A DNA stretch of 28,404 bases from Candidatus Thorarchaeota archaeon (GTDB taxonomy: Archaea; Asgardarchaeota; Thorarchaeia; Thorarchaeales; Thorarchaeaceae), in the NCBI GenBank assembly GCA_048882485.1, contig JBHLRP010000042.1, positions 1 through 28,404 of the forward strand. Direction: 5' to 3'. The translations under genes and the position numbers were made by a program. The number at the start of each line of letters is the position of its first letter. The stretch's first letter is position 1. The notes beneath the pieces are model-generated. The model did not search any database. It was given only the letters and a program-made list of their open reading frames with translations, and had not been told where the DNA came from. Positions 1-3,461 of this stretch are shown here, piece after piece.

Positions 1-887
1 CCATAGGCACCTGGTTTGCCATAGAAAATGCAGACCAGATCTGAAACATAGTCAAGAATTGAAAGGTCGTGCTCAACAACGACCACTGTCTTTCCTTGAT
101 TGGAGAGATTGCGGATTGCTCGGCCCACCCTCAGTCTTTCGCGGACATCAAGGTAGGCAGTTGGTTCGTCAAAGAAGTAGATATCACCCTCTCGCACGAT
201 CGCTGCTGTCACAGCGACTCGCTGTAGTTCTCCACCTGAAAGAAACTTGATTGGGCGGTCCCAAATCTCAGTCAGGCTCATATCCTCCTTCAGGCCCTTT
301 AGTCGACCGGACGTGTCTGCAGCCTCAAGAAGTTCACTGATCGGTTTGTCAGCCACCGCCTTGACCTTGGGCAGGTCTGTTATAGTCTGCGGTTTATGGA
401 CTGGCACAATGTTGCCGTCCTGTATTCGTTCAAAGAACGGCTGCAGCTCTGAACCTCGGTATTGTTTGATTATCTCATCCCATTCGGGCGGACTCTCAAC
501 ATTGCCAAGATTGGGCTTCAATTCACCTGCCAGTATTTGAACAGCGGTTGTCTTGCCTACACCGTTGGCACCAATCAATCCTAAGACCTGCCCCTCCTTC
601 GGTATTGGCATCCGGAAGAGCTGGAATCCATTTACGCCGTAGCGGTGACTACCGTCAGTATCGAGCTCCTCAGGAAGATTCACCACGCTAATCACATGGT
701 ACGGACACTTCTTCACACACATTGCCGCCCCAGAGCAGAGGGACTCCACAATTGTAGGGGGCTTGTCAGGTCCATCGAAGAATACGACTGTCTCAGTACC
801 AGTCCTGACCATGGGGCAGAACCTTTGACACTCATGAGTACAGTCCTTTGGCCTGCAACGAACTCTATCAATAACAGCAATGCGCAT
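1..887 (-). CDS. rli: Ribosome recycling ABC ATPase ABCE1/RLI, N-terminal part (runs off the left edge; not in the ORF track)
   Basis: Hand translation from ATG at 887: MRIAVIDRVRCRPKDCTHECQRFCPMVRTG...ESLCSGAAMCVKKCPYHVISVVNLPEEL...HRYGVNGFQLFRMPIPKEGQVLGLIGANGVGKTT. Later LSGGELQR, YFFDEPTAYLD and VVEHDLSILDY...YGKPGAYG. This is the Fe-S domain plus NBD1 of ABCE1. GGTGA-type SD upstream. Confidence 0.97.
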   Translation of the reverse strand, partial: MRIAVIDRVRCRPKDCTHECQRFCPMVRTGTETVVFFDGPDKPPTIVESLCSGAAMCVKKCPYHVISVVNLPEELDTDGSHRYGVNGFQLFRMPIPKEGQVLGLIGANGVGKTTAVQILAGELKPNLGNVESPPEWDEIIKQYRGSELQPFFERIQDGNIVPVHKPQTITDLPKVKAVADKPISELLEAADTSGRLKGLKEDMSLTEIWDRPIKFLSGGELQRVAVTAAIVREGDIYFFDEPTAYLDVRERLRVGRAIRNLSNQGKTVVVVEHDLSILDYVSDLVCIFYGKPGAY

Positions 888-1409: not shown

Positions 1410-2024
1410 GTGCTGGCTAGTCTAATAGTAATTGCATTAGTGATACCACTCATCACCATAGGCAGTGTGCATTCTGATGAGATTCTATTAAGAATCCACT
1501 ACCAATACGAATACTCGCATCGGGATGGAAGTTCGGATAATACGACGAGTGCTTCTGAATACTATGAAGTTTCTGCGGCTGCGACACTGGATAATCTGAG
1601 TCTTGCACTAGGAGGAAAAGAAGTTCGAGGGTATCCAGTGTGGGTAAATGTGAGCAATTGGAGTGCAGGCCAAACGGTTCAACTTGCTGGTGAAGATTTC
1701 ACCGTCATAAGTCCCCAGGAGAGGTACAGATTATATTGCTGGGAAGCACAAACCTACAATGGCACAAGTGCGTACTATCATAGAGAAACGGGAGTCTTCC
1801 TTGGCTCATCATATTTCGAAACCGAGTTTCTAGGCGGGACTGAATGGATCTGGACAAGTAGCGATATCATTGTCACTTATCAAAACCTCGATGACTTCCA
1901 TTTAGTAGAATATTTCTTCAATCCTGATTCATTAGTACTATCCTTCATTCTGATAGAAGCAGTAGTAGCTCTCAAGCTCTTTGATAAGAAGTCCTTGATG
2001 GACTCCACACCCCGAAAGTCTTAA
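1410..2024 (+). CDS. Hypothetical secreted, membrane-anchored protein
   Basis: N-terminal hydrophobic signal (LIVIALVIPLITIG), Tyr/Ser/Thr-rich body with several N-x-S/T sequons, C-terminal TM segment (SLVLSFILIEAVVAL) followed by basic residues. Confidence 0.75.
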   Translation: MLASLIVIALVIPLITIGSVHSDEILLRIHYQYEYSHRDGSSDNTTSASEYYEVSAAATLDNLSLALGGKEVRGYPVWVNVSNWSAGQTVQLAGEDFTVISPQERYRLYCWEAQTYNGTSAYYHRETGVFLGSSYFETEFLGGTEWIWTSSDIIVTYQNLDDFHLVEYFFNPDSLVLSFILIEAVVALKLFDKKSLMDSTPRKS

Positions 2025-2048: not shown

Positions 2049-2121
2049 GTGGAATGATGATGAAGTAGGGATGGTGAACGTCTCATCAACGTGATGACCC
2101 ACTAAACCGCAGTCTGACCAC
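2049..2121 (+). ncRNA. Box C/D methylation-guide sRNA (predicted)
   Basis: Terminal stem GTGG (2049-52)/CCAC (2118-21); box C ATGATGA 2054-60; D' GTGA 2074-77; C' GTGATGA 2091-97; box D CTGA 2114-17. The D guide contains TAAACCGCAG, the complement of the archaeal 16S motif CUGCGGUUUA. Confidence 0.8.
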
Positions 2122-2215
2122 TCATCAGTATACACTGAATTGGAACCTCACACCTCACAGCGAGAAGAGGATAGAGAACCTTTGACGGCCCTTACTAGGA
2201 GACCCATGAATCTTG

Positions 2216-2623
2216 ATGACCATTGACTGTAAACGATTTTGTCCCGATGTGAGAATATGCTGTCAAGAGACTGAGATGACTATTACCCGAAAGGATGCAG
2301 AGAGAATCAATGTTCTTGGTTACTCGACCACCGATTATTCCCAGAAAGTTGGCGATGGATTCTGCGAACTAAAGAATATCGAGGGTCACTGCTTCTTCTA
2401 TGACGCATCCTTAAAAGAGTGTAAGATATACGAGGCCAGACCAGAGGGTTGTCGATGGTTTCCAGTTGTTTATCACTACAAGAAGCGCAAATGTATCGGT
2501 GATGACGACTGTCCTGCCGCGCCCACTTTAACCAGGACCGATATTAGAAAGGTCTGTCATAAGGTGAAGGCACTAGTAGAGGAACTAAGGAGGGAGGTTG
2601 CGCATGGCGAGAGCCCTTGCTGA
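2216..2623 (+). CDS. YkgJ/UPF0153 family cysteine-cluster (putative Fe-S/Zn) protein
   Basis: C-x3-C-x5-CC...GHCFFYD...CKIYEARPEGCRWFP motif. ATG 2216 preferred over TTG 2213. Confidence 0.88.
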   Translation: MTIDCKRFCPDVRICCQETEMTITRKDAERINVLGYSTTDYSQKVGDGFCELKNIEGHCFFYDASLKECKIYEARPEGCRWFPVVYHYKKRKCIGDDDCPAAPTLTRTDIRKVCHKVKALVEELRREVAHGESPC

Positions 2624-3461
2624 CCTTCATACCCATTCATCCATTTCGGATGGAACAGATTCGCCAATCGATTTGGTCAGACTAGCAGATGAGATGAAAC
2701 TCGGTGGAATTGCCCTGACTGACCATGATACAATCATGGGCCTGAGGGAATTCATGGAGGCAAGGGCAACACCTGATCTTCAAAGGGTTCCAGGTCTGGA
2801 ACTCAGTGCAGACTACCAGGACCAAGAGGTCCACATTCTAGGCTACTTTGTCCCCTTGGAATCCAAGACGCTTGATGCAAAGCTTAGAGACCTCAGAAAT
2901 CGGCGGCGATACAAGTTTTCAAAGATGATTGACAAGCTTCACAATCTTGGAATAGAGCTGGAGCATGACGAGGTAGAGGCTGCTCTACAGGGAGTGGAGA
3001 GTCCCGGGCGTCCGCATCTTGCCGCGTTACTTATGAAGAAAGGGATAGTCGTATCAATCGATGAGGCATTTGACTTGTACCTTGGAGAGGGAAAACCTGC
3101 ATATGTTGAGAAGAAACGCATGCATGTTTTCAAAGCAATTGATCTTATCAGATCAGTGGGAGCCGTGCCAGTTGTTGCGCATCCTCTTACAGTCGAGGTG
3201 CCAAATCTGGGAGATTTCCTTGGAGACCTAGAGAAATCTGGAATTCTTGGTGTTGAGATCGATTATGACTATCATACTGCCATAGCCGATGTTAACTTGG
3301 AGGAATTGCGGAATATCACACGGGAATTGGGTCTCATAGAAACCGGAGGAAGTGACTATCACGGAGATTCTTGGATGGGCGCACTCGGAAGTGTAACGGT
3401 GCCAGTAAAAACCATTGAGATTCTTAGAGATGCTGCAGATGACATGAATACGCAAGCCTAA
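2604..3461 (+). CDS. PHP-domain metal-dependent phosphoesterase (TrpH/YciV-like)
   Basis: DLHTHSSISDG, TDHDT, GLELS, HILGY, GRPHLA, AHP and GGSDYHG motifs. GGAGG SD before ATG 2604; overlaps the upstream gene end. Confidence 0.93.
   Translation: MARALADLHTHSSISDGTDSPIDLVRLADEMKLGGIALTDHDTIMGLREFMEARATPDLQRVPGLELSADYQDQEVHILGYFVPLESKTLDAKLRDLRNRRRYKFSKMIDKLHNLGIELEHDEVEAALQGVESPGRPHLAALLMKKGIVVSIDEAFDLYLGEGKPAYVEKKRMHVFKAIDLIRSVGAVPVVAHPLTVEVPNLGDFLGDLEKSGILGVEIDYDYHTAIADVNLEELRNITRELGLIETGGSDYHGDSWMGALGSVTVPVKTIEILRDAADDMNTQA

Follow-up and report, generated by a model that had tools for sequence, protein, structure and literature searches.

Archaeal dual-guide box C/D small RNAs (sRNAs), known from the sR RNAs of Pyrococcus and from Pyrobaculum, have common RUGAUGA and CUGA boxes, a terminal kink-turn (K-turn) and the N+5 rule, together with two guides of about 12–13 nt, symmetric spacing, conserved rRNA targets and genes for the core proteins (PMC6009581; PMC7994747). 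A typical archaeal C/D sRNA is about 50 nt long and combines the terminal K-turn with an internal K-loop (PMC6009581). In Nanoarchaeum equitans, the targets of the dual guides sR17 and sR15 are strands of helices 28 and 30 of 16S rRNA that lie far from each other (PMC4644070). Eukaryotic box C/D snoRNAs are longer and often contain a stem between D′ and C′, and have the K-turn and N+5 logic in common with the archaeal RNAs. No known prokaryotes are more closely related to eukaryotes than the Asgard archaea, which encode the snoRNP core proteins; our literature search for C/D guide sRNAs of this group found no description of one.

Here we analyse a Thorarchaeal element that shares the features listed first for the archaeal dual guides and is, very probably, a dual-guide box C/D sRNA aimed at two cytidines of 16S rRNA. 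Unlike typical archaeal sRNAs, it is 73 nt long, its internal motif reads as a full K-turn, in which a 4-bp stem carries a conserved loop of 7 nt, its D′ and C′ boxes are GUGA and AUGACCC, and it reaches the threshold of no Rfam family. The assignment as a C/D guide sRNA is made with high confidence; each methylation site, taken singly, is put forward with less.

The element lies at positions 2049–2121 on the plus strand of the window (the whole 28,404-nt stretch of DNA that was analysed), in the gap between the open reading frames (ORFs) 1410–2024 (+) and 2213–2623 (+). Its sequence, GTGG-A-ATGATGA-TGAAGTAGGGATG-GTGA-ACGTCTCATCAAC-GTGATGA-CCCACTAAACCGCAGT-CTGA-CCAC, matches the original prediction exactly. 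The two ends close on each other: GTGG (2049–2052) pairs with CCAC (2118–2121) to form the terminal C-stem, which is followed by a 3-nt bulge (AAT, 2053–2055), box C (ATGATGA, 2054–2060) and, at the other end, box D (CTGA, 2114–2117). The resulting GUGG/CCAC stem, AAU bulge, GA/GA, U-U and G-C pairs compose the terminal K-turn that had been proposed, and the stem covaries, pair 3-77 occurring as UA (11) or GC (7) and pair 4-76 as CG (16) or UA (9). Between the ends lie a 13-nt D′ guide (TGAAGTAGGGATG, 2061–2073), box D′ (GTGA, 2074–2077), an internal hairpin and a D guide. Of the four boxes first proposed, C, D and D′ stand; the placement of C′ on GTGATGA gives way to covariation and to the divergent homologues, as set out below.

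Short boxes are common words, and a 65-aa ORF on the minus strand (1938–2135) overlaps the element, so that chance words in non-functional intergenic DNA, or conservation imposed by that ORF, had to be weighed as its origin. The comparative data already refute this explanation, and we assign it a practically negligible probability. We searched the 3.96-Mb genome, in both orientations, for the complete set of elements, namely box C, box D, a UGAUGA between them and a terminal stem of 4 bp with K-turn geometry; this site was the single match, and each of five shuffled genomes gave 0. Conservation across the family is confined to the 73 nt, so the ends of the ORF are not conserved, and compensatory changes occur in three helices.

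The original prediction had also held that such an element is missed by standard annotation, and in gathering mode no Rfam family reached its threshold for the 73 nt. The top sub-threshold match was to SNORD31, at 21.8 bits against a gathering threshold of 40. Six of the seven weak matches in the region were to C/D-box families, including all those that overlap the element. The weak matches to eukaryotic SNORD31, SNORD53/92 and U43 all fall far below the gathering scores and carry no family-level similarity.

More than 40 Thorarchaeota genomes carry homologues, in every case with a small ORF on one side and a CxxCxxCC/PHP gene pair on the other. BLAST recovered them in 17 of 40 relatives, all from the same genus or family, and a guide-core pattern search of GTDB species genomes returned 33 loci, most of them in genomes titled Candidatus Thorarchaeota, one in a genome titled Hermodarchaeota and the others under generic titles (archaeon, uncultured archaeon, Promethearchaeota). 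The pattern was built from the two guide cores, and the D′ core is therefore partly fixed by it in the loci L038–L070, but not in the BLAST-derived L003–L019. In the alignments, conservation ends within a few bases of the terminal stem, and the 73 nt remain recognisable between flanks that diverge. The 29 distinct variants all share box C, box D and TAAACCGCA, and AAG-A-GGAT is almost as constant. Both boxes also persist in the divergent homologues, in line with the box conservation that had been proposed as a check, and the D-guide word TAAACCGCA is unchanged in every homologue found, divergent ones included. The D′ guide is replaced in one relative (G042) and disrupted in another (G017), with the D guide kept in both, which suggests that the D′ arm is dispensable in some lineages.

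A covariance model built from the alignment matched 15 of the 26 genomes sampled within the host's family; among 125 genomes drawn from 26 further families of the phylum, its one match was marginal. Among the genomes searched, the RNA is restricted to one family. A weak model match (25.6 bits) in AT-rich DNA of an other-family genome (L087; G044:C145:27545–27690, minus strand) has the layout UUGAUGA-UGAAGUAGGAAAUAGUAAUU-CUGA with a short flanking stem, and may be a single-guide mini C/D RNA with the same UGAAGUAGG word.

At the internal motif our reading departs from the original one, which took C′ as GUGAUGA (2091–2097) and left a 16-nt D guide; on that reading C′ would form a K-loop with D′ over a 13-nt unstructured loop. 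GUGAUGA is a perfect match to the RUGAUGA consensus and is present in most variants, and K-loops are the norm in the sRNAs of Pyrococcus and Pyrobaculum (PMC6009581). Comparison of the variants, however, places C′ 3 nt further 3′, at AUGACCC (2094–2100), where it would form a full internal K-turn with the GUGA D′ box. In this geometry the ACGU that follows D′ (2078–2081) pairs with ACGT (2089–2092), whose last two bases are the GU of the former C′ box, around a 7-nt loop (CTCATCA, 2082–2088), so that the hairpin spans 2078–2092. GAU (2093–2095) is bulged, the sheared GA is at 2096–2097, and the CC(C) of C′ pairs with the GG before D′. The former 13-nt spacer is thus re-read as a 4-bp stem and a 7-nt loop, and the 3-nt shift shortens the D guide to 13 nt (ACTAAACCGCAGT, 2101–2113).

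Three variants discriminate between the two registers, because in each the first GA is lost and the second (2096–2097) is retained. G024 carries ..CGTCGTGA.. (GUCGUGA, bulge CGU) and L081 carries ..GCTATGA.. (bulge UAU). L019 carries GCAAUGA (bulge AAU), and its NC stem is compensated from GG..CC to CAC..GUG. The surrounding bases, meanwhile, covary as the 4-bp stem: pair 33-48 is GU, AU or GC and pair 36-45 is CG, UA, UG or AU among the variants, and G042 has a fully compensated GUGU/GCAC stem that alters a pair invariant elsewhere. The GA of D′ is retained in most variants, and in three it changes to UA jointly with a change of the C′ GA to GG.

Over the 29 variants, the K-turn model pairs 92% of cells, against 18–46% with slid partners; five pairs change on both sides, and the observed covariation score was reached by 0 of 500 shuffles. 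RNAalifold independently predicts the core of the 4-bp internal stem. By nearest-neighbour rules the K-turn model has an energy of about 0 kcal/mol, which lends it no support and is the value to be expected for protein-dependent K-turns. The internal motif is also not fully canonical, having GUGA rather than CUGA as D′ and a C-U pair where canonical boxes have U-U. The guide spacers vary jointly, at 13/13 nt in most variants and at 12/12 nt in the L043 group, where each of the two has lost one base. Archaeal sRNPs are said, after Tran et al. in 2005, to keep a symmetric guide spacing of about 12 nt, and the equal guides of the shifted register are in line with such a rule. The earlier register would instead give asymmetric 13/16 spacers and a G-G clash with D′ where the shifted one gives G-C pairs, and we regard it as quite unlikely.

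The loop CUCAUCA is conserved far beyond the needs of a loop and is the complement of the box word UGAUGAG. An alternative hairpin, UCAUCA/UGAUGA, is possible in most variants (82% of cells paired) and would hide C′; as a fold it was rejected, its covariation falling below that of the K-turn model and its formation being impossible in L040. When the loop was compared with 16S rRNA beside either target, the only matches were two scattered 6-mers, 50–60 nt away and at chance level. It is conceivable, if rather unlikely, that throughout the family a true internal K-turn with a functional capping loop replaces the archaeal K-loop, in an RNA that also tethers helix 30 to helix 28. The conserved loop could then keep C′ masked, in the manner of a conformational switch, up to the binding of L7Ae, or could contact the pre-ribosome at a third point.

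The targets were read on the 16S genes of relatives because no 16S gene was found in the host assembly; these were a same-genus genome (G011), with an sRNA copy that shares about 97% identity with the window's along the aligned part, and other relatives. Positions 2–11 upstream of box D, the pairing part of the D guide (2103–2112), form 10 bp with UUGCGGUUUA. As first described, the guide word TAAACCGCAG ends 1 nt 5′ of box D. Position 5 (G2109) forms a Watson–Crick pair with the C of UUG[C]GG (position 919 of the G011 gene), which corresponds to E. coli 952 on the ruler in the supplement of PMC4644070 and lies on the 5′ strand of helix 30. The predicted target, the C in (C/U)UG[C]GGUUUA near position 952 in the helix 30 region, therefore holds as a prediction on the relatives' 16S. 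The archaeal string behind it needs revision, ..GCCUGCGGUUUA.. being replaced by GGAGCUUGCGGUUUAAUUGG in the nearest relatives. Taken literally, the word CUGCGGUUUA expected of the host is absent from same-genus and same-family genes, and UUGCGGUUUA stands in its place with the 10-bp duplex and the N+5 cytidine unchanged. At the position where the relatives have U for the expected C, the G of the window's guide makes a G-U pair and the A of most variants makes A-U. Against the same-genus 16S, the duplex of ten contiguous pairs has an energy of −13.8 kcal/mol, and 64 of 1000 shuffled guides pair as well. Statistically the match is modest and, alone, not rare; its weight comes from the invariance of the guide.

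The D′ guide, which the original prediction left without a target, has a stronger 16S match than the D guide. Its positions 1–12 pair with CGUCCCUGCUUC of the same-genus 16S through ten Watson–Crick and two G-U pairs (−20.4 kcal/mol), a match equalled by 8 of 1000 shuffled guides. G2069, the fifth base 5′ of D′, forms a Watson–Crick pair with the bracketed cytidine of ACGUC[C]CUG (position 1354 of the G011 gene), which corresponds to E. coli 1382 and lies in the linker that leads to the 3′ strand of helix 28. The predicted site of this arm is therefore C1382. A U/C variation at guide position 8 faces a G, and pairing is retained. Neither guide finds a run of more than 8 pairs in 23S rRNA.

Some of the relatives' 16S genes have features of their own. 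The gene in G015 (L029) was left out of the target analysis, since, at just 88% identity to the other same-genus 16S genes, that of G011 included, it is possibly mis-binned. With an insert of about 616 nt after ..CAACGCC, it is probably an intron-bearing gene. In two further relatives, G012 (L086) and G018 (L030), a 30-nt hairpin-forming insert (AGGG.ACGTG....CACGTACCCGGGGAA, between ..GUCCCUGC and UUCUUG) falls inside the D′ target, just 5′ of TTCTTGCACACACC. Such an insert may represent either an expansion or a mini-intron, and in the latter case, were it removed by splicing, the D′ guide would pair over the junction. With relaxed criteria and a required 9-nt match to rRNA, a search of the whole genome for additional C/D RNAs gave 5 real against 3 decoy matches. 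The best extra candidate, on contig C3 (128014–128093), was rejected, being conserved only in three very close genomes, with its flanks included.

The closest described parallels come from the catalogue of Dennis et al. (PMC4644070), although the sites quoted here for IHOsR56, NeqsR17 and NeqsR15 were derived from the sRNA sequences in its supplement, not from the authors' table. Read in this way, the D guide of N. equitans sR17 pairs with the same CCCUGCUCC strand of 16S; the nucleotides selected are U1371 (N. equitans numbering, approximately E. coli U1384) and A915 for sR17, and G930 and G1218 for sR15. Approximately C1382 and C952 would instead be selected by the Thorarchaeal RNA, which combines the 5′ strand of helix 30 with the 3′ side of helix 28 and has no sequence homology to sR17 or sR15 outside the boxes. 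The D′ guide of Ignicoccus hospitalis sR56, GGGCAGGGACGAU, is complementary to ACGUCCCUGC, on the same 16S strand as the Thorarchaeal D′ guide; its register, read from the sequence, selects approximately U1380, two bases from C1382, and its second guide differs. Among the seven archaeal species in that catalogue, we found no guides for CUGCGGYUUA or C952 (PMC4644070). The two Thorarchaeal sites lie about 430 nt from each other in the 3′ major domain. To our knowledge, neither predicted site matches a human or yeast 18S methylation site, the nearest being human Am1678, which we take to lie at approximately E. coli A1377.

Such spacing of two targets in one domain also fits an RNA that is chiefly an rRNA-folding chaperone, tethering the strands of helices 30 and 28 and directing methylation at one site or at neither. 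A chaperone role has been proposed for Nanoarchaeum sR17 and sR15, which bridge helices 28 and 30 (PMC4644070), and the 30-nt insert that interrupts the D′ target in two relatives points the same way. Both guides, however, keep a Watson–Crick pair at position 5 and the canonical distance from D or D′, and the fibrillarin gene is present. Loss of the D′ arm in lineages where the RNA persists argues further against obligatory bridging. On this balance a chiefly chaperoning RNA seems improbable, and a dual methylation guide remains the preferred reading.

In 50 of 50 loci examined, the gene order around the element is ABCE1 (−), an 80-aa ORF (+), the sRNA (+), CxxCxxCC and PHP. The divergent neighbour in nearly all genomes is the ABCE1/RLI ribosome-recycling ATPase gene (Fer4_RLI and ABC_tran; window 3–887, minus strand). 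The CxxCxxCC (PF03692) and PHP (PF02811) genes, identified by Pfam matches at 2213–3461 (+), are always downstream of the sRNA. A 204-aa ORF without a Pfam match (1410–2024, +) stands between the 80-aa ORF and the sRNA in some lineages only, and occurs as one or two tandem divergent copies (26–52% identity) in the subclade of the window.

Approximately 30 nt upstream of box C lies a BRE/TATA-like motif, GAAAG followed by TCTTAAGCAAAA (2014–2030, +), and the stop codon of the ORF 1410–2024 falls within the TATA-like box. A purine-rich word and an A/T-rich word recur at equal distance in nearly all homologous loci (GAAAGCATATTTAG, GAAAGGATTTTTAG and GACGTATATAAC are examples), in an upstream flank that has otherwise diverged. 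We infer that the motif acts as a promoter, whose spacing would start transcription at the terminal stem. The start codon of the CxxCxxCC gene is preceded by GGAG, with scant space for a separate promoter, which makes co-transcription of the sRNA with the CxxCxxCC–PHP genes plausible.

An element whose distance to one particular downstream gene pair is always 55–105 nt, with both on one strand, could also act mainly in cis, as a K-turn leader of the CxxCxxCC–PHP operon that serves as an L7Ae-binding regulatory or processing signal, with its rRNA complementarity incidental. The Shine–Dalgarno-like GGAG of the downstream gene and the lack of an obvious promoter there agree with such a leader, and L7Ae is known to bind K-turns in archaeal mRNAs (PMC5539422; PMC6009581). 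A leader fails to explain why the single-stranded guide segments of 10–12 nt are the most invariant parts and the stems are variable, or why both guides match universally conserved 16S strands in the N+5 register. We therefore consider a mainly cis-acting element very unlikely, although guide and leader roles are not mutually exclusive.

The host encodes the partners that a guide RNA would need. Its assembly, a metagenome-assembled genome, comprises 157 contigs and 3.96 Mb, is 90.5% complete, and belongs to the Thorarchaeota, so the Asgard host suspected at the outset was correctly recognised. The presence of fibrillarin, Nop5 and L7Ae had been proposed as a check, and Pfam searches find all three: fibrillarin (PF01269, 287.8 bits) and Nop5 (PF01798, 227.4 bits) are encoded by adjacent genes on contig C14, and L7Ae (PF01248, 95.1 bits) by a gene on contig C58, one of two L7Ae-family genes in the host. 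A 23S gene is present (G000 contig C34, 29135–32216, minus strand), with 1.3 kb upstream that contain no 16S gene; the rRNA genes of the host are probably unlinked.

Together, these features suggest how the RNA would work as a dual guide. A BRE/TATA-type promoter of its own would drive transcription, perhaps with the RNA at the start of the CxxCxxCC–PHP transcript, and the RNA would fold into two K-turns: the terminal one (GUGG/CCAC stem, AAU bulge, and the GA of box C with the GA of box D) and the internal one (ACGU/ACGU stem with its 7-nt loop, GAU bulge, and the GA of C′ with the GA of D′). L7Ae would bind each K-turn, and a Nop5 dimer with two fibrillarins would bridge both motifs over the two 13-nt guides. 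By the N+5 rule, pairing of the D guide with UUGCGGUUUA on the 5′ strand of helix 30 would put the C952 equivalent in the fibrillarin active site, and pairing of the D′ guide with CGUCCCUGCUUC, in the linker into the 3′ strand of helix 28, would select the C1382 equivalent. Given the distance between the two target sites within the 3′ major domain, the RNA may in addition keep both strands together during assembly of the 30S subunit.

This RNA is a new example of a well-known class, and the established picture of box C/D RNA function is unchanged by it. For the Thorarchaeal family, it provides a family-wide Asgard C/D RNA with two testable 16S sites, and a covariance model that detects the RNA where Rfam does not. 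The eukaryotic Snu13/15.5K protein binds K-turns but not K-loops. The predicted internal full K-turn is a small structural point that would bear on the relation of the K-loop sRNAs of archaea to the stem-containing snoRNAs of eukaryotes, and, if its capping loop is functional, the architecture of the family would be intermediate between compact archaeal sRNAs and eukaryotic snoRNAs.
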